64,000 nucleotides of DNA from Candidatus Omnitrophota bacterium (lineage in GTDB: Bacteria; Omnitrophota; Gorgyraeia; Gygaellales; Profunditerraquicolaceae): the NCBI GenBank assembly GCA_963805065.1, contig CAWDSS010000010.1, positions 920,359 through 984,358 of the forward strand, written 5' to 3'. Made by a program: the position numbers and the translations under genes. Below are positions 868 through 54,740 of the stretch, piece after piece (the stretch's first letter is position 1; the number at the start of each line of letters is the position of its first letter). Below the pieces are notes generated by a model that saw only the letters and a list, made by a program, of their open reading frames with translations, was not told the DNA's origin and did not search any database.

Positions 868-3665
868 AATTTAGCGCTCAAGAACTTTTCCAGTTTACTT
901 CTGTTGGTTTCAATTTCCTGGATTATCTTCTCAACTTGCTCTTGGGCAATTACGTTTCCATCTTGAGTGACATACCAGATATACCCGCCTGCGTCTACCT
1001 GCCAATATGGCTTGTAAGGCGAAGCAGAGTATGCGTTGGGTTGCCAGACGAGTTTAGCAGTTGCTGCACTAATGTCTCTAAGTAGCTTAGAATAGGCAAG
1101 AAGCTGTCCGTTTGAATATTTCTTCTTGGAAAGATTATTTAAAACATATTTTTGAATTAACTGTATTGCATGAGCTATATCTACCTTTAAAAGTATTTCC
1201 GGTGTCTTAGTCCAGCTCGCTTCTTTAAAATGCCCGTCTTTAGCATCAAGGATTATCACCCCCGAAGCTAAAAATTCCTTTCCTTTCTTCGTCTTTCCAA
1301 AAGGCACAAGATAATAATCGCTAAAATCTTTGTCCAGGCGCTTTACAAATATGGGGTTACCGGCAGTTGTGCCGTTGAAAGCGTCAACCGCACTTTGATC
1401 AGATAGCAGGTATGAGTCAACGATATCGCGCCAGCCCAGTTTCTTTAGGTGAGATTTTTTTAATTTTGCCGAAGTAAGTTTTATGCCTATAAACTCTAGG
1501 TTGCCAAAATCCTCTTCGGGTATTTTAATTTTCACTTTTGCATGGCCGGAATAATACGGGGGTTCTGCTACCTGGACAAACTCGCCGTTATAGGCATCAG
1601 TTGAAACCAGGGGCATAAAATAAGTTGACCCGCATTCTGCCGCGGTTTTATAAGTATCCGTTCCTATGCCGTTAATTACAGGGTCTTTTACCCATAATCC
1701 GTATACTGTAAAGTCAGGCGTATAAGTCGGGTTTGTGCGCGGCTCAGGGCAGGGATTGGCGCTGGTGGCATATCCTTTTACTGCAACCCAATGGTTGTAG
1801 TTTCCGTATATAGGCACTGCTGCCGGAGTATTAGGCCGGGCAACTAAAGCGCTGTCAGTTTTCCACCATTCCTCCTGTGTAACTAAATAAGCCATCCAGT
1901 GGCAGATATCGCGCATATAATTATTAAACGCATTGGAATCTAAATTCGGGTCATAAGTATCTACGGCATAGTTATAACCCTTATAAGGATTTCCGTCAGG
2001 TAGGCTGTCATAAACGTCAGCCCAGTCTGAGACCAAAGAATCATAAGGATCAAAATGCCCCAGAACTTTATCCATTTCATCGGCAGTTAAATCAGGGCCG
2101 AAGGCGCCAGGAGAACGCGCGTATTGATAAATTGTATTCTGGTCCAGTAATGCCGCGCCTGCGCCCTGGCGGACATAATTTAATAGCATTTGGGCTACAG
2201 CTGCACCTGTTGAATTGTAAGCGGTATTCTGATACCAGGGCATCTCTGTCATATTCAAGGTACAGGAAGTAGCCGGTATTCCTACTCCACCTCCCAGCTT
2301 GGTGGGATCAAACCCTGCTTTTGCAAAGGCATAATAGCAGGACGCAAGAGCAGCCTGGCAATTATAAGTATAGTATCCTGTACCCGTAGGAACGTTTCCT
2401 GCCACTGTTGCGTTAAGATAAGATGCGTAGGGAGCGACTTTTGCATTTGCGTCATCAGACGGGTTTACAAAAAAATTGTCCAGAGAAGAAACCAGAGTAT
2501 TATATTTATTCAGGTAGCCTTGAGATTTTATTTGGTTTCCCAGAGAGTAATGGATTTGAGCTGCCCTTAAATAGGCCAGCGCCATCTGTGAGGACATTTC
2601 TACCGAGCCGTAATCTCCGGTTTCTGATACGGAGAATCTAAAAAATATCGGGCTTGCGTCTGTGTTCAGGAAAGCAGTCCGGCTTTCTATAGCCGAAAAC
2701 ATAGCGTCAATTTCAGCATCTCTTTGCTCCTGTGTGTTCCCGAAGAAAGTATCCTGGGACATCATGGCTAGCGGCGCAAATGCCATTACGTCTGTAGCAA
2801 CATAACTGAAGTCACTCTTTATCCATGCTGTGCCGCTAAAAGTAGCTGAAGAGCTATACAGATGGACCGAAGTATCATACATACTTTTAAGCCAATTATC
2901 TATTTGGGTTGCTGCCTGGTTGTATTTTGTATCCGAAGTTACCTGATACAATGCCTCGAATGCGTAAAGCGCCCGTTCATTCTGTTCGCTAGATTTAAGG
3001 TTCCAGTAGAAATCTGATTGCGGTTCAGGATCATGATACATGCCCCTTGGCCCGTAGCGTATGCCGCCGTCTGTATCCTGCAACCTCAAGAGATAATCGC
3101 CCAAGAGCACAGCCATATTCCTGTAATCCTGATTGTTGGTTTTTTGGTATGCCTCAAGGGAGTCAATTATCAGGCAGGCGCTTGCTCCGGTGTCCACAAG
3201 CCAATCCCAGGTAGGCCACCAGTTTGTTTGGTCGCGGCCTAATATTCTTACCAGGCGGTACAGGCCGTTTGTTAAAGGAGTTCCATTAGCATCGTAGTAA
3301 TTGCCGTTTGTGTTAAACAAAGGGTTATTGGAATTGGTTAGTTGTGTCTTAAAATAATTAACATAAGTATCTAAAATAGTAGTAATCCCGCCGTTTAAAC
3401 AGATTCTTGCTAATATTGACTGATCGTAGCTTACTGCCCCGTAATTTATAAAAGCCTGGTCAGCAGTTGATTGTCCGCCAAGATAAATCTGGAAGCTTGG
3501 GGTTAGGCCCTGGAATCCGGAAGTATTGTCAACTGCCCTGTCAGTAAAGTACTTTATATAAGGTAAGGCAGTTTGATAAAGTCGTTGATCGCTACTCTGG
3601 GCTTGTAGACTTAGGGGAGAGAGAAGGCAAACAATTAATGCAATGGTTGAAATTCTGAATTTCAT
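864..3665 (-). CDS. Large secreted multidomain protein (933 aa), function unknown
   Basis: Long ORF with an N-terminal signal peptide (LSPLSLQA-QS). The N-terminal half has alpha/alpha-toroid-like segments (LQDTDGGIRYGPRG). The central part resembles a papain-like C39-type fold (NHWVAVKGY, VYGLWVKDP), but the nucleophile position reads STGAAVAQM. Confidence 0.6.
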   Translation of the reverse strand: MKFRISTIALIVCLLSPLSLQAQSSDQRLYQTALPYIKYFTDRAVDNTSGFQGLTPSFQIYLGGQSTADQAFINYGAVSYDQSILARICLNGGITTILDTYVNYFKTQLTNSNNPLFNTNGNYYDANGTPLTNGLYRLVRILGRDQTNWWPTWDWLVDTGASACLIIDSLEAYQKTNNQDYRNMAVLLGDYLLRLQDTDGGIRYGPRGMYHDPEPQSDFYWNLKSSEQNERALYAFEALYQVTSDTKYNQAATQIDNWLKSMYDTSVHLYSSSATFSGTAWIKSDFSYVATDVMAFAPLAMMSQDTFFGNTQEQRDAEIDAMFSAIESRTAFLNTDASPIFFRFSVSETGDYGSVEMSSQMALAYLRAAQIHYSLGNQIKSQGYLNKYNTLVSSLDNFFVNPSDDANAKVAPYASYLNATVAGNVPTGTGYYTYNCQAALASCYYAFAKAGFDPTKLGGGVGIPATSCTLNMTEMPWYQNTAYNSTGAAVAQMLLNYVRQGAGAALLDQNTIYQYARSPGAFGPDLTADEMDKVLGHFDPYDSLVSDWADVYDSLPDGNPYKGYNYAVDTYDPNLDSNAFNNYMRDICHWMAYLVTQEEWWKTDSALVARPNTPAAVPIYGNYNHWVAVKGYATSANPCPEPRTNPTYTPDFTVYGLWVKDPVINGIGTDTYKTAAECGSTYFMPLVSTDAYNGEFVQVAEPPYYSGHAKVKIKIPEEDFGNLEFIGIKLTSAKLKKSHLKKLGWRDIVDSYLLSDQSAVDAFNGTTAGNPIFVKRLDKDFSDYYLVPFGKTKKGKEFLASGVIILDAKDGHFKEASWTKTPEILLKVDIAHAIQLIQKYVLNNLSKKKYSNGQLLAYSKLLRDISAATAKLVWQPNAYSASPYKPYWQVDAGGYIWYVTQDGNVIAQEQVEKIIQEIETNRSKLEKFLSAKF

Positions 3666-4293: not shown

Positions 4294-5214
4294 ATGAAAA
4301 TAGCCAAAGACATTACTAAGCTTATCGGAAATACGCCGTTAGTGCAGTTAAACAGGGTTACCAGCGAATGTGTTGCTAATCTGGCTGCGAAATTGGAATT
4401 TTTTAACCCTTGTTCATCGGTAAAAGACAGAATCGGCTTAAGCATGATTGAGGCGGCGGAAAAAGAAGGTAAAATTAGAAAAGATACGATAATCTTGGAA
4501 CCTACTTCCGGAAACACTGGCATTGCTTTGGCTTTTGTGTGTGCGGTTAAGGGTTATAAATTGGTCTTGGCAATGCCTGAAACTATGAGCCTGGAAAGGC
4601 GCCAGGTATTGAAAGCTCTGGGTGCTGAAATTATTCTTACGCCGGGTACTGAAGGAATGACTGGAGCGCTAAAAAAGGCAGAAGAATTGTTAAAAAGCGA
4701 TAAACGTTATTTTATGCCGCAGCAATTTAAGAATAAAGCAAACCCGGAAATCCATCGCTGCACTACTGCCAAAGAAATTTGGGACGATACCGAAGGCAAT
4801 ATAGATATTTTGGTTGCGGGAGTAGGAACCGGTGGTACAATTACAGGAGTAGGAGAGGAAATTAAAAAGAAAAAACCTTCTTTGAGGGTAATTGCTGTTG
4901 AGCCAAAAGATTCTGCGGTCTTGTCCGGAGGAAAACCTGGGCCGCATAAAATTCAGGGAATCGGCGCAGGGTTTATCCCCGAAGTCTTAAATAGAGAAAT
5001 AATAGATGAGGTCATACAGGTTTCTAACGAAGATGCTTTTCTAACAGCCAGGAGACTTGCCAGTGAAGAAGGCATATTAGTAGGGATTTCTTCGGGTGCC
5101 GCGACTTTTGCTGCATTGGAAGTGGCGAGGAGAAAAGAAAATAAAGGTAAGCTTATCGTGGTAATATTGCCTGATACTGGCGAGCGTTATCTAAGCACGG
5201 AATTATTCAAGTAA
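4294..5214 (+). CDS. cysK: Cysteine synthase A (O-acetylserine sulfhydrylase)
   Basis: PLP-lysine motif SVKDR, TSGNTG loop and GVGTGGT loop; 306 aa. Confidence 0.9.
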
Positions 5215-10061: not shown

Positions 10062-10063
10062 GA

Positions 10064-10232
10064 CCCCCACTGCTTCGCTTTGCGAAGCAAAGCGTGGGGG
10101 TTAATTCGCGCATATAACTTACTCACACTTACGTGTTCGTAAGTTTATTGTTTGAAGATCCCCTCTCAAGCAAGAGAACCGAGGGGATTAATTCGCACAA
10201 TGGCTTACTCACACTTACATGTTCGTAAGTCA
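10064..10232 (+). repeat. Two tandem hairpin-plus-box modules
   Basis: Each unit is a GC-rich hairpin (CCCCCAC...GTGGGGG; ATCCCCTC...GAGGGGAT) followed by TTAATTCGCRCA and CTTACTCACACTTACRTGTTCGTAAGT (itself a hairpin, ACTTAC/GTAAGT). Confidence 0.6.
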
Positions 10233-10269
10233 TGTGCTCATTAATTGTAAACCAGAAATACTAATTAAG

Positions 10270-10297
10270 TTGACAATTCCCCCGGCATTTATATAAT
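10270..10297 (+). promoter_or_regulatory. Consensus sigma70-type promoter upstream of the TonB-dependent receptor leader
   Basis: TTGACA (10270-10275), 16-nt spacer, TATAAT (10292-10297). Confidence 0.6.
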
Positions 10298-10306
10298 AAA
10301 TGTCGG

Positions 10307-10492
10307 GTTTTTATTTTGTGGGTCCTGCCGAGGCTTGTTTTCGCAGCATCGCTCGATTTTCCCCAGCGTGGAAAATCTTCGCTCAAGCGGAAGCCTTCGC
10401 TCTTGGATACTTTTCTAACGAGGCAAACCATACCCGCTCCGGCTTCCTTATGTGCTGCTCAAATCAAGCCTCGTCACCCACAAAATAAAAAC
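10307..10492 (+). repeat. Structured palindromic element, copy 1 (candidate ncRNA or leader element)
   Basis: The termini are reverse complements over ~30 nt. Internal 8-bp hairpin GATTTTCC-CCAGCGT-GGAAAATC (10355-10377) and stem GGAAGCC...GGCTTCC. Homologous copies at 12370-12556 and 37616-37877. Confidence 0.7.
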
Positions 10493-10518
10493 TTGTCCAT
10501 AGATTATTTACTAAAATT

Positions 10519-12342
10519 ATGGCTATAATTATTAATTTATTATTGGTTTTTGTTTTTGTGGCGAAGGGGTTTTGCGATGAAGCGCAAGATTTAGGCAAGA
10601 TTGTTGTGAAATCGGCAGGAACAAATTACGAGAGAGCCGATTCGCTCAAAAATAACTATAGCCTGCAGACGGTGGATGGCTCTGAAATAAAAGAAAATAA
10701 TCCTGAATCTGTGGCGGATGTATTAAATTATGTTTCGGGCATGGATTTACGTTACAGGTCAGGCATGGGGGTGCAGGGGGACTTATCTTTAAGGGGTTCA
10801 ACTTACGAACAGGTAGCGGTTTTAATAGACGGCGTGGCAGTAAATGACCCGCAGACCGGCCACTACAGTTTGGATATACCACTCACTGCTTTTGATGTTG
10901 AAAAGGTGGAAGTATTGAAAGAGCCGGCTAGCAGCCTATATGGCCCTAATGCTTTGGCGGGAAGCGTAAATATTATTACTAAGAAGCCTGATAAACAAAG
11001 TTTGCAGTTGGATTCTTCTTTTGGCCAGCATGCGTTATTCGGGCAGGCATTTTCTCTAAGCATTCCTAATGATAATTTATCAGGCAGGTTATCGTTCGAT
11101 CACGATATATCCCAGGCTGCCAGGCCGAATACGGATTTCCAATATTATACGACATCGCTGTATTTAAACAGGAAATTGGATAACTTGGAATTAGATACTT
11201 TATTTGGCTATCAGAAAAAAGATTACGGCGCAGATAGTTTTTATTCCAACCTGTTTAACGAGGAAGAGGAGCACACCGAAACTATTTTTATAAAAACCGG
11301 TTTTAACCTTACCGAAGAATTCGGGTCGCTAGAGAACAATTTATTTTTACGCAGGCACAAGGATAAATTTATCCTGGAAAGAAATGACCCCACCTCTGTG
11401 AATTATCACACTACGTATGTATACGGCTTTAATTCAAATTTAGATTCTCCGCTTGAATATGGCGATTTGTTATGCGGCCTTGACTTGGGAGAAGAAGAAA
11501 TTAACTCCACTAATTTAGGCCAGCACCAAAGACCCCATGGGGCAGGTTCTGCAGGATTTGTTCCGTATTTGGGGGATAGGTTAAGCCTGGATTCCAGGGC
11601 GAGATTAGATTATTACCAAGATCGGGGATGGAATGAGTCATTTAATCTTGGTGCAGGATACGTAATCATAGACCAGAAGTTAAAACTAAAAAGCTCATTA
11701 GCCAGGAGTTTTAGAATTCCCAGCTTTACGGAATTATATTATTCTGACCCGGCGAATATAGGTAATCCTAATCTTAAGACAGAGAAGACCGATAGCGTAA
11801 GTTTAGGCATAAACTTTATCCAGGATTTTCTTGATTTCCAAATTAACGGCTTCTACCGAAGGGGAAAGAATTTGATTGATTGGGTAAGGCAATCTACCTC
11901 CGATCCCTGGAGCGCTACCAATTTAGGCAGGGTTGATTATCGGGGCATAGAGTTCAGTTCCAAAATAAATACGGACTTAAATTTCAGGTATTTTAATTTA
12001 CAAGACGCCGTATTTTCCTATAACTATATCAGCCCTGATGAAAAAGCAACCGGTTTCATTTCCAAGTATGCCTTGGATGTGTTGCAACACCAGTATATTT
12101 TAGACCTGAATTCTAGACTTATGGGCCTGAATTTCAATTGGCAATTGTCTTATAACCAGAGGTATTATGGCGAGACATACTTTATCGGCAACCTATATAT
12201 AGGTAAGAGATTCCCGGTAAGGGATTTTATTTTCGAGCCCTATATAAAGATCGATAATTTAACCAATACAAAATATTCGCAAATTTCAGGCGTGCTTGAA
12301 CCGGGGAGGTGGATCAAGGGGGGCTTGAAATTCGAATGGTAA
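10519..12342 (+). CDS. TonB-dependent outer-membrane receptor
   Basis: Signal peptide; plug-domain motifs (DLSLRGS, VLIDGVAVND); long beta-barrel region ending GGLKFEW. Confidence 0.85.
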   Translation: MAIIINLLLVFVFVAKGFCDEAQDLGKIVVKSAGTNYERADSLKNNYSLQTVDGSEIKENNPESVADVLNYVSGMDLRYRSGMGVQGDLSLRGSTYEQVAVLIDGVAVNDPQTGHYSLDIPLTAFDVEKVEVLKEPASSLYGPNALAGSVNIITKKPDKQSLQLDSSFGQHALFGQAFSLSIPNDNLSGRLSFDHDISQAARPNTDFQYYTTSLYLNRKLDNLELDTLFGYQKKDYGADSFYSNLFNEEEEHTETIFIKTGFNLTEEFGSLENNLFLRRHKDKFILERNDPTSVNYHTTYVYGFNSNLDSPLEYGDLLCGLDLGEEEINSTNLGQHQRPHGAGSAGFVPYLGDRLSLDSRARLDYYQDRGWNESFNLGAGYVIIDQKLKLKSSLARSFRIPSFTELYYSDPANIGNPNLKTEKTDSVSLGINFIQDFLDFQINGFYRRGKNLIDWVRQSTSDPWSATNLGRVDYRGIEFSSKINTDLNFRYFNLQDAVFSYNYISPDEKATGFISKYALDVLQHQYILDLNSRLMGLNFNWQLSYNQRYYGETYFIGNLYIGKRFPVRDFIFEPYIKIDNLTNTKYSQISGVLEPGRWIKGGLKFEW

Positions 12343-12369
12343 TTAATGAATCTTTCATTTCCTCGCTTG

Positions 12370-12556
12370 ATTGATTTTTTGCGGGTCCTGCCGAGGCACG
12401 TTCCTCGCGTCATCGCTCGCAATTCCCCAGCGTGGAATTGCTTCGCTCAAGCGGAAGCCTTCGCTCTTGGATACTTGTTTAACGAGGCAAACCATGCCCG
12501 CTTCGGCTTCCTTATGTGCCGCTCGTAACATGCCTCGTCACCCGCAAAAAATCAAT
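12370..12556 (+). repeat. Structured palindromic element, copy 2
   Basis: Same orientation as copy 1. Hairpin GCAATTCC-CCAGCGT-GGAATTGC (12419-12441). The termini ATTGATTTTTTGCGGGT and ACCCGCAAAAAATCAAT are mutually complementary. Confidence 0.7.
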
Positions 12557-12675
12557 TTTAATGCTCGAAGGTAAGTCAGATTCATTTACAGTACATTACA
12601 ACTACTTTTCAAGCGCCTTGTATATTAGCAAGGCTCTTCGCTTCGCTCAGAGTTAAATTTTCTTGCAACTACGTT

Positions 12676-12867
12676 AATGAAAATTTAAGTGTCTTGGAGT
12701 GATGCCAAGCGGGCTTCTATAGGGGTCCCCGCGAGGGGTGTGTGCTAGGAAAATTTGACGAGCACACACCCCGAAGCAGGGGAAACTTTCGCCCCGCGAC
12801 AAACACTCCAAGTCAGGCCCCGCGTAGTGTAGGGCGCGAGAAGAATAAATAACTTTAAATTTTCATT
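12676..12867 (+). ncRNA. GC-rich nested-stem domain (candidate structured RNA, class unknown)
   Basis: Closing stem 12676-12689 / 12853-12867; 9-bp stem CTTGGAGTG (12693-12701) / CACTCCAAG (12804-12812); 12-bp stem GGGGTGTGTGCT (12735-12746) / AGCACACACCCC (12761-12772); several G4/C4 tracts. Confidence 0.35.
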
Positions 12868-12904
12868 TTTATAGATATAATATTTGTAGCAAAGGAGAGA
12901 ATGA

Positions 12905-13195
12905 ATGTTTATACATGCGGTGTTATTTGAAATGCAGGCTAAGGAAGTAAGGGATTACCGTAATGACAGCTTGATGTGGGCAAGATTCGTTAAGAAATCA
13001 AAGGGATTCATTGTCTATTATACCATGAAGCGCTACGGCCATAAAAACCAGTATGTTTCCATTTATGAATGGAAGGCCAAAATTGACCATGACCGCTTCA
13101 TGAATAAGTATCACGATTGGCTGGAGGCTAAATCCAAGGCAAGGGTAACAGTCTTAGGCTATTATAATCTTAAGGAAGTTGATAAGGTTAAGTAA
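12905..13195 (+). CDS. Small protein, weak ABM/Dabb-like resemblance
   Basis: 96-aa ORF with an SD (AAAGGAGAG) just upstream and a GATATAAT -10 element at 12874-12881. The fold assignment is weak. Confidence 0.5.
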   Translation: MFIHAVLFEMQAKEVRDYRNDSLMWARFVKKSKGFIVYYTMKRYGHKNQYVSIYEWKAKIDHDRFMNKYHDWLEAKSKARVTVLGYYNLKEVDKVK

Positions 13196-36034: not shown

Positions 36035-36106
36035 GCCGAAGTAGCTCAGTGGTAGAGCGCGGCCCTGAAAAGGCCGGCGTGGGGGGTCCGATTCCCTCCC
36101 TCGGCA
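36035..36106 (+). tRNA. tRNA-Phe (GAA)
   Basis: Manual cloverleaf: acceptor GCCGAAG/CCTCGGC (one A-C mismatch), D arm GCTC-AGTGGTA-GAGC, anticodon stem CGGCC/GGCCG, loop CTGAAAA, T arm GGGGG-TCCGATT-CCCTC. No encoded CCA. Confidence 0.8.
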
Positions 36107-36203: not shown

Positions 36204-36282
36204 GAGAAACATCGGGCTGGACTTAAAACGTTTCAGCCCTTTTTGTTTACTATTACCATTTTGAAATGGAAGTGGTATAATT
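36204..36282 (+). repeat. 79-bp perfect direct repeat, copy A (terminator hairpin plus extended -10 promoter)
   Basis: Identical to 54631-54709. Contains GGGCTG...CAGCCC plus TTTTT and TGGTATAAT. Confidence 0.9.
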
Positions 36283-36318
36283 GATGAAAATAAAGGAGCG
36301 GGTCAGTCCGCATAGCTT

Positions 36319-37615: not shown

Positions 37616-37877
37616 AAATCTTCTCGCTGAGTCGCGTCTGTCTTGTCTGTGTTTCTCGGGAACGCTCGCATTTCCCCAGCGTGGAAATGCTTCGCTCAGG
37701 TCGGCTGCGTCGCTCTCCCGCATCCGGGCCGTATATAAATCCGTTTTTTTAATTTAGGAGCCGGATGCGGGAACCGTGCCCGCTCCTTGCCTCCATGTCC
37801 CTCGAAATCACAGCCAAGCCAGCCGCTCATAACTATGTTAGCTCGAAACATGCCTCGTCACCCGCTGGCGAGAATTT
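37616..37877 (+). repeat. Structured palindromic element, diverged copy 3
   Basis: Shares ACGCTCGCATTTCC-CCAGCGT-GGAAATGCTTCGCTCAG and the 3' end CTCGAAACATGCCTCGTCACCCGC with copy 2. The middle is replaced by an 11-bp stem CCCGCATCCGG...CCGGATGCGGG. Confidence 0.6.
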
Positions 37878-54630: not shown

Positions 54631-54709
54631 GAGAAACATCGGGCTGGACTTAAAACGTTTCAGCCCTTTTTGTTTACTATTACCATTTTGAAATGGAAGT
54701 GGTATAATT
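54631..54709 (+). repeat. 79-bp perfect direct repeat, copy B
   Basis: Identical to 36204-36282. Confidence 0.9.
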
Positions 54710-54740
54710 AATATTCGCACTGTCGGCAGGAGCTTATAAT

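Follow-up and report, generated by a model that had tools for sequence, protein, structure and literature searches.

What is the GC-rich island of nested stems that lies between a TonB-dependent receptor gene and a small ABM gene in a Candidatus Omnitrophota genome? The island is part of a 64,000-nt stretch of DNA that we analysed as a whole (the window), and its neighbourhood has the gene order NifS-like, birA, TonB-dependent receptor (10519-12342), 96-aa ABM/HmoA-like (12905-13195), cspA, mnmA and nadA. An earlier note on this DNA had described the stems, hairpins and G and C tracts of the island and the TATAAT of the downstream gene, and all of these are present (Table 1). The note considered an independent structured RNA, a 3'-UTR domain of the receptor transcript or a foreign insertion. 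We propose, with a probability of about 0.7, that the island is one of the copies of a non-autonomous, intergenic long-hairpin repeat of a Candidatus Omnitrophota clade and belongs to the same superfamily as the three D2 repeats of the window, which the earlier note had called 'element' copies. Our verdict is that it represents a new subfamily of MITE/REPIN/ERIC-like hairpin repeat and is an inserted, mobile-like element.

The island stands out by composition and by fold. Its GC content is 0.55-0.60 against a window mean of 0.40, and the ORFs that overlap it are spurious and at most 45 aa long; the earlier description of a GC-rich island that no ORF explains is thus correct. The AT-rich arms pair over 13 bp perfectly, or over 14/15 nt with one bulge, and the CTTGGAGTG/CACTCCAAG stem inside them can be extended to 12 nt at 92%. 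The place of 12693-12701 is taken by ...GGCGAGG... in other copies, and it corresponds to that of the reverse-complemented right arm in the neighbouring repeat family. The island contains three GGGG and four CCCC tracts, and a CCCC-GCGA-GGGG hairpin at 12727-12738 has its GGGG in common with the 12-bp apical hairpin, so that the two pairings compete. The minimum free energy of the island RNA is -83.1 kcal/mol on the + strand versus -55.5 +/- 5.1 for shuffled sequences (z -5.4), and the minus-strand fold reaches z -6.7 against shuffled sequence. Furthermore, the window contains eight perfect inverted repeats of at least 13 bp with a loop of at most 250 nt, versus 0.33 expected. Three inverted repeats have the same closing-stem geometry, namely the two 'element' copies (loops of 160 and 161 nt) and the island (166 nt).

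Table 1. Positions of the island, its parts and related features in the window, and neighbours of the homologous copies at other loci
Feature	Positions	Strand	Remarks
Whole palindromic unit, AT-rich closing stem and GC-rich body	12676..12867	+	superfamily profile match at 12677-12855 on +, E 9e-29
Left AT-rich arm AATGAAAATTTAAG	12676-12689	+	same position as AT-rich terminal repeat of sister family
Right AT-rich arm CTTTAAATTTTCATT	12853-12867	+	overlaps -35 of ABM-gene promoter; aligns with ancestral L087 spacer
Family-conserved body (5' arm, apical module, 3' arm)	12690..12815	+	from metagenome homologue alignments
5' arm segment CTTGGAGTG	12693-12701	+	pairs with 12804-12812
3' arm segment CACTCCAAG	12804-12812	+	partner of 12693-12701
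Inner stem GCGGG (helix 3)	12709-12713	+	pairs with CCCGC 12793-12797
Inner stem partner CCCGC	12793-12797	+	pairs with GCGGG 12709-12713
Apical module (AGGGGTCCCCGCGAGGGGTGTGTGCTAGGAAAATTTGACGAGCACACACCCCGAAGCAGGGGA), 63 nt	12721-12783	+	homologue identity 93-95%, 41 consecutive invariant bases
Apical hairpin, 12 bp, perfect in window copy	12735-12746 / 12761-12772	+	
Terminal arm motif TCAGGCCCCGCG and local side hairpin	12813..12838	+	motif homologous to GGCAGGACCCGCG, the reverse complement of the left terminal repeat of the neighbouring family
TTAAATTTTC	12653..12662	+	direct repeat of 12855-12864; inverted partner of 12679-12688; possible target duplication
Sigma-70-like promoter of ABM gene, TTTAAA-16-TATAAT	12854..12881	+	TATAAT at 12876-12881; conserved in L087; 3' of island body
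D2 copy 1 ('element copy 1')	10300..10496	-	profile E 2e-46; between BirA-operator promoter and TonB-receptor start codon
D2 copy 2 ('element copy 2')	12366..12558	-	profile E 4e-46; 5' of island; same arms, opposite orientation
Third D2 copy	37638..37832	-	superfamily profile; upstream of restriction-modification gene pair
L092 copy			neighbour recA
L097 copy			neighbour SurA/PpiD-like gene
L091 copy			neighbour acylphosphatase; 3' half of element replaced by coding region, core kept
L094/L096 copies			convergent cspA
L088/L093 copies			convergent tRNA genes

Does the island correspond to a known RNA? The earlier note found no fit to known RNA families, and searches of the window and of eight homologous loci with Rfam 15 agree. 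At the gathering score, the window yielded two tRNAs and nothing on the island, and at E<=10 the region 12300-13000 gave chance matches only (rteR, mir-610 and MIR477). The eight homologous loci gave nothing on the element, that is, no riboswitch, ribozyme, 6S, SRP, RNase P, tmRNA or omega-RNA family. Comparison of the core by eye with SRP domain IV, RNase P CR-I, 6S, sigma-54/ECF promoters and an IHF site gave no convincing match, and a search of the literature on Omnitrophota non-coding RNAs or repeats found nothing relevant. One of the loci, L096, has a fluoride riboswitch (3447-3517; 54.5 bits) upstream of crcB, and an arsR-arsP segment between cspA and crcB at this locus replaces the ORF6N gene of the sister MAG.

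The island has homologues in metagenomes, for which the earlier note had suggested a search. When these were scanned with a 19-mer from the apical hairpin (3' side), 11 loci were returned, and the eight of them with extended similarity to the island share the element. Could the island still be a chance palindrome or a degraded remnant without a family? The window contains a single island-type copy, with no second one found in the 64 kb by similarity search or with the core profile, which itself matches at 12706-12789 with E 6e-22. However, the eight homologous loci, the z score of the fold and the superfamily profile match already refute this explanation, and its probability is next to nil. 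The island was also compared by blastn with plasmid and phage collections, which gave no match, and scans of viral contigs returned a single irrelevant match. A GTDB scan with the apical-hairpin pattern returned 77 loci, none of them from Omnitrophota and most of them Chloroflexota palindromic repeats that have only an 11-bp stem in common with the island; the pattern is a poor query because the hairpin is perfect only in the window copy. Across these loci (L008-L084), the 11-bp stem, GGGGTGTGTGC/GCACACACCCC, forms the centre of various palindromic repeats that Chloroflexota MAGs contain in multiple copies and that have no similarity to the island beyond the stem, and it also occurs in Ignavibacteria, Acetobacteraceae and Microvirga. 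Its recurrence is either meaningful or a product of search ascertainment.

The tip is the most conserved part of the element. In a comparison that rests on six distinct island-type sequences, the arms are ~60-90% identical between genomes versus 41 invariant bases in the tip, and the flanks outside the tip diverge yet still fold back on each other. Seven other copies, which have the commonest form of the apical hairpin, carry three mismatches in its 5' arm, and the 5' arm of L091 is intermediate between this form and that of the window copy. The 3' arm of the hairpin is invariant across copies although its 5' partner varies, which indicates a constraint beyond pairing. The inner stem has compensatory variants in homologues (GCAGG/CCTGC and CAGCC/GGCTG), and purine-purine GA/GA internal loops recur beside it. 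In addition, the + strand folds better than the - strand by 2-9 kcal/mol in 5/5 copies tested. Given the conserved tip, the invariant 3' arm, the better fold of the + strand and the GA/GA loops, a function of the tip at the RNA level is conceivable. A small-ORF reading of the core was rejected, given that third-codon positions are equally invariant and that the frames end differently in each copy; a concatenated peptide query from the spurious ORFs returned no further copies.

Such conservation could be expected of a family of trans-acting or protein-binding small RNAs with paralogous copies, in which the invariant tip of 41-63 nt would be a seed or binding site and the arms a scaffold. The nearly invariant core between diverging flanks, the constancy of the apical 3' arm despite a varying partner, the strand preference of the fold and the recurrent GA/GA loops would all fit this role, as would two copies that are convergent to their neighbours, one of which is followed by a shared bidirectional terminator. 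Nevertheless, we regard a small RNA family as unlikely. Neither a sigma-70-like nor another consensus promoter lies 5' of the island in the window, no consensus promoter was seen by eye 5' of the homologous copies, and a consistent terminator is lacking. The L091 copy is truncated by a coding region yet retains the core, and no complementary target was found within the window. Moreover, the arms also belong to a second repeat family, and the element is present in some genomes and absent from their sisters, as described below. The independent structured RNA of the earlier note is not supported by these observations: the element is multi-copy, neither a consensus promoter nor a consistent terminator was found for it, its loci are not conserved and it varies in presence between sister genomes.

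Could the element instead act in cis, as a leader or riboswitch that regulates the downstream ABM (HmoA-like) gene or a biotin-linked operon? In the window and in L091, L092 and L097, element and downstream gene point in the same direction, and a biotin-linked context is provided by birA and a BirA-operator-like site. However, the neighbour genes are unrelated between loci, with ABM, recA, ppiD and acylphosphatase genes downstream, and the element is convergent with its neighbours in two contexts. The consensus promoters of the downstream genes sit 3' of the element, and orthologous ABM genes exist without it. The unrelated neighbours and the promoters 3' of the element mean that it is not a leader; this explanation is effectively refuted and very improbable. 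The earlier note had likewise denied that the island is the leader of the downstream gene, and the location of the ABM promoter 3' of the island and the orthologous ABM genes without the element confirm its view.

The receptor-ABM spacer indicates how the island came to its present site. The 96-aa ABM protein had no record in an exact look-up, and the identical protein is encoded on a 1.19-Mb contig. Its homologues are overwhelmingly from Candidatus Omnitrophota, and in relatives the receptor and ABM genes are separated by 22 nt (L002), 54 nt (L087) or 56 nt (L099-L102). The spacer in the window is ~500 nt longer and contains D2 copy 2, a spacer and the island body. The alignment of L087 to the window extends up to the receptor stop at 12342 and resumes from 12844. 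Given that the spacer of the relatives measures 22-56 nt without an island and that ~500 nt are extra here, the island is an insertion. Of the alternatives in the earlier note, the foreign insertion is thus supported, as the island is missing from the orthologous spacer of relatives and belongs to a dispersed repeat. The right AT-rich arm may be ancestral sequence outside the inserted element, as the promoter sequence that it overlaps is also found in L087.

Two direct repeats flank the inserted material, TTTCATTT (8 nt; 12353-12360/12860-12867) and TTAAATTTTC (10 nt; 12653-12662/12855-12864), and the flanks of both align to a single L087 segment, ATGAAATTTTATTT. These direct repeats may reflect target duplications from nested insertions; as candidate duplications, TTAAATTTTC (12653/12855) and TTTCATTT (12353/12860) imply boundaries other than the inverted-repeat ends. 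Directly adjoining the inverted repeat of the island there is no direct repeat, and no target-site duplication can be defined at that boundary. In another Omnitrophota genome (L006), the corresponding site just upstream of the ABM gene is taken up by a GC-rich palindromic repeat of a different kind (GTCATTGCGAGCGAG...CTCGCAATGAC; 4870-4960), and the receptor-ABM spacer thus seems to be an insertion hot spot.

No terminator-like site is predicted between 12200 and 13400, and the island is therefore probably contained in the 3'-UTR of the receptor transcript or in a receptor-ABM transcript. A 3'-UTR domain of the receptor transcript is thus plausible as passive inclusion only: no terminator is predicted between the receptor gene and the island, but at other loci the family has no link to this gene.

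To which repeat does the island belong? Within the window, the similarity between island arms and D2 arms is weak, and the link is bridged through homologues. The 3' arm of the L097 island is 96% identical over 24 nt to the left arm of the L092 D2 repeat on the opposite strand, and its 5' arm is 93% identical over 28 nt to the right arm of the same repeat, again on the opposite strand. Likewise, the L097 3' arm matches the left arm of D2 copy 2 of the window at 90% over 29 nt on the opposite strand. As judged from these sequence comparisons, the island family carries the D2 arms as their reverse complements. The two families can be aligned over their full length, with the island type ~60 nt shorter at the tip. 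A joint profile recovers four window copies (10300-10496, 12366-12558, 12677-12855 and 37638-37832) and copies in several other Omnitrophota loci. On the basis of these alignments, the island belongs to a shorter, flipped subfamily of the same long-hairpin repeat as the neighbouring D2 copies, with arms of ~35-40 nt each and a different 63-nt apical module. The repeat family that the island matches is the one that the earlier note had flagged next door, and it corresponds to no published family.

The other D2 copies of the window have distinctive surroundings. The birA-receptor spacer (10062-10518) contains two GC hairpins, each followed by a ~50-nt direct repeat (TTAATTCGC..CTTACTCACACTTAC.TGTTCGTAAGT), and 3' of those repeats a BirA-operator-like TGTAAACC-N14-GTTGACA overlaps a promoter. 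D2 copy 1 is inserted between this BirA-operator-like promoter and the receptor start codon, i.e. in the 5'-UTR. A short-read contig with an identical receptor gene (L001, identical to window positions 10457-12405) ends inside both flanking D2 copies, which is the expected signature of a multi-copy repeat that breaks assembly. In another part of the window, an 82-nt direct repeat (99% identical; 36204-36285 / 54631-54712) brackets 18.4 kb and starts 98 nt after a tRNA gene (36035-36106). The bracketed segment contains a D2 copy, an N4/N6 DNA methylase with an MvaI/BcnI-type endonuclease, and cell-wall enzymes, and the 82-nt repeats have the appearance of attachment sites that flank an integrated island.

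The two arms of each copy co-vary, as the covariation test suggested in the earlier note has revealed. In the superfamily alignment, the 24 arm pairs are standard in 89.9% of cells, compared with 32-46% when the partners are slid. Ten of the 24 pairs have changed on both sides, compared with 2-5 in the slid controls. At 0.39, the covariation score exceeds the 0.06-0.15 of the controls, and 0/500 shuffles reached it. In the inner stem (helix 3), three of the five pairs have changed on both sides. Compensation is also seen between two D2 copies within the window, where GTGGGT/ACCCAC in one corresponds to GCGGGT/ACCCGC in the other. This co-variation means that the folded single strand matters, and it does not distinguish DNA from RNA. 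Co-varying stems as proof of an RNA gene were accordingly dropped as an argument, because the stems are the shared arms of the repeat.

Presence and absence between sister genomes further characterize the element as mobile-like. L094 and L097 come from one sample, and the closest protein homologues of both are found in a single Omnitrophica MAG that is without the element at both the L094- and the L097-type loci. In the empty-site comparisons, each of which concerns a block of D2 plus island and never the island alone, L097 (ppiD locus) contains a 444-nt block at a precise point at which L103-L106 are empty, and in L092 a comparable block lies shortly before the recA -35 box, at a site that is empty in L107-L114. 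Moreover, L099 is without the copy that is present in L094/L096. The L097/L103 junctions display no clear target duplication. A D2-type repeat lies 20-135 nt 5' of the island element in the window, L097, L092 and L090, with constant relative orientation, and the element occurs without a D2 neighbour in L094 and L088. An 80-nt miniature D2 (GAGTTTTACGGGTCCTGCCG...CCCGTAAAACT) is found in L099 (12584-12663) and L090 (2636-2718), 97.6% identical between the two loci; it stands alone in one genome and directly 5' of an island-type element in the other.

The recurrent [D2 repeat]-[spacer]-[element] block, with the element at its right end in four contexts, raises the question of whether the island is an RNA component that some mobile element uses, for example a self-cleaving ribozyme or a guide or bridge-like RNA, carried as cargo at one end of a composite transposon. 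The lack of an evident target duplication, the conservation of the core while the stems vary and an IS200-like Y1 transposase ~600 nt away in L088 would be consistent with this explanation. However, tRNA genes lie between the L088 IS200 gene and the element, no TnpB, IscB, IS110 or RT gene is present among the annotated flanking genes at any locus, and Rfam gave no ribozyme or omega-RNA match. The copies without a D2 neighbour (L094 and L088) also speak against it, and we consider such an RNA component highly unlikely. The L088 transposase, the only one nearby, was rejected as the mobilizing enzyme as well, given the intervening tRNA genes and the absence of tblastn matches to it in the window or the loci.

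How would a non-autonomous hairpin repeat of this kind spread? We propose that a trans-acting enzyme would recognize a folded single strand of the element, either DNA or possibly RNA, and copy it, as has been suggested for REPINs and for elements of the IS200/IS605 type. An enzyme of this type would account for arm changes that compensate each other, for a conserved tip and for the fact that no target duplication is clear. It would insert the copies, again with no clear target duplication, at sites immediately upstream of -35 boxes or promoters, often beside a copy of the sister subfamily. At its present site, read-through from the TonB-receptor gene probably leads to passive transcription of the island. 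Any action that it has there would be that of a stable hairpin in intercistronic RNA or in the 3'-UTR, as for ERIC and REP elements, and it could be a decay barrier or a processing site, as described for ERIC-type repeats (PMC3184786).

In addition to spreading as a repeat, the hairpin might be a chassis, a vehicle for interchangeable and strongly constrained RNA modules, namely the 63-nt tip and the GATTTTCC...GGAAAATC of the sister family, with the tip as a functional RNA. We hold this to be improbable. If it were true, the tip could be, for example, a new self-cleaving ribozyme, an sRNA that binds a protein, or the guide or recognition RNA of a recombinase, and it would spread through Omnitrophota genomes on a mobile scaffold. 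A functional tip would provide a new RNA motif that is compact and already comes with natural variants. The repeat reading that we prefer matters in its own right. It resolves a conspicuous candidate for an orphan structured RNA into a repeat family and averts a false ncRNA annotation. It also reveals a previously undescribed hairpin-repeat superfamily, with two tip modules on a single arm pair, in the little-studied uncultured phylum Omnitrophota. This superfamily probably inserts next to promoters, and it fragments short-read assemblies.

The kinds of repeat closest to the superfamily are REPINs, ERIC/Correia-type MITEs and BIME mosaics. The BIMEs of E. coli are built from REP units of ~35 nt with known IHF and gyrase binding. 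Like the present arrangement, they are mosaics of palindromic units that alternate in orientation, are separated by short spacers and are located between genes of one transcription unit.

REPINs are REP doublets that form hairpins and are mobilized by RAYT tyrosine transposases (PMC3116915). Like the island family, they are multi-copy, non-coding sequences outside genes that fold into a long hairpin as ssDNA or RNA; in both, compensatory hairpin changes are common and no classical target duplication is seen, and both persist in lineages and form higher-order clusters of neighbouring copies (PMC3116915). However, REPINs are ~70-110 nt long, compared with ~140-190 nt in the island family, and have a RAYT partner, whereas no RAYT gene is linked to the island element in the 64-kb window. 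REPINs are most conserved in their REP 16-mer ends and variable in the spacer at the tip, whereas the island family has its most conserved part at the tip, with 41 invariant bases there, and varies at the ends, with arms ~60-90% identical. Unlike REPINs, the island/D2 superfamily places two alternative tip modules on a single arm pair.

The MITEs of the ERIC, Correia and RUP type are, like the island, imperfect palindromes of 100-200 nt that are intergenic and often located at gene 3' ends or 5' regions, and like the island family they vary in presence between related strains (PMC3184786). These MITEs are co-transcribed, and their RNA hairpins can alter mRNA stability or supply promoters (PMC3184786). 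The island family has the terminal inverted repeats of a MITE, consisting of a 13-bp perfect AT-rich part and imperfect GC-rich arms. It also has the size (140-190 nt), the lack of a transposase ORF, the copy number (four superfamily copies in the window) and the empty sites. ERIC, Correia and RUP elements combine defined terminal inverted repeats with TA or short target duplications, whereas no consistent duplication was found for the island family, which resides in a different phylum and has no sequence similarity to them. In the island family, conservation is higher at the tip than at the ends, opposite to what classical MITEs and REPINs show, and this pattern suggests a function beyond mobilization.
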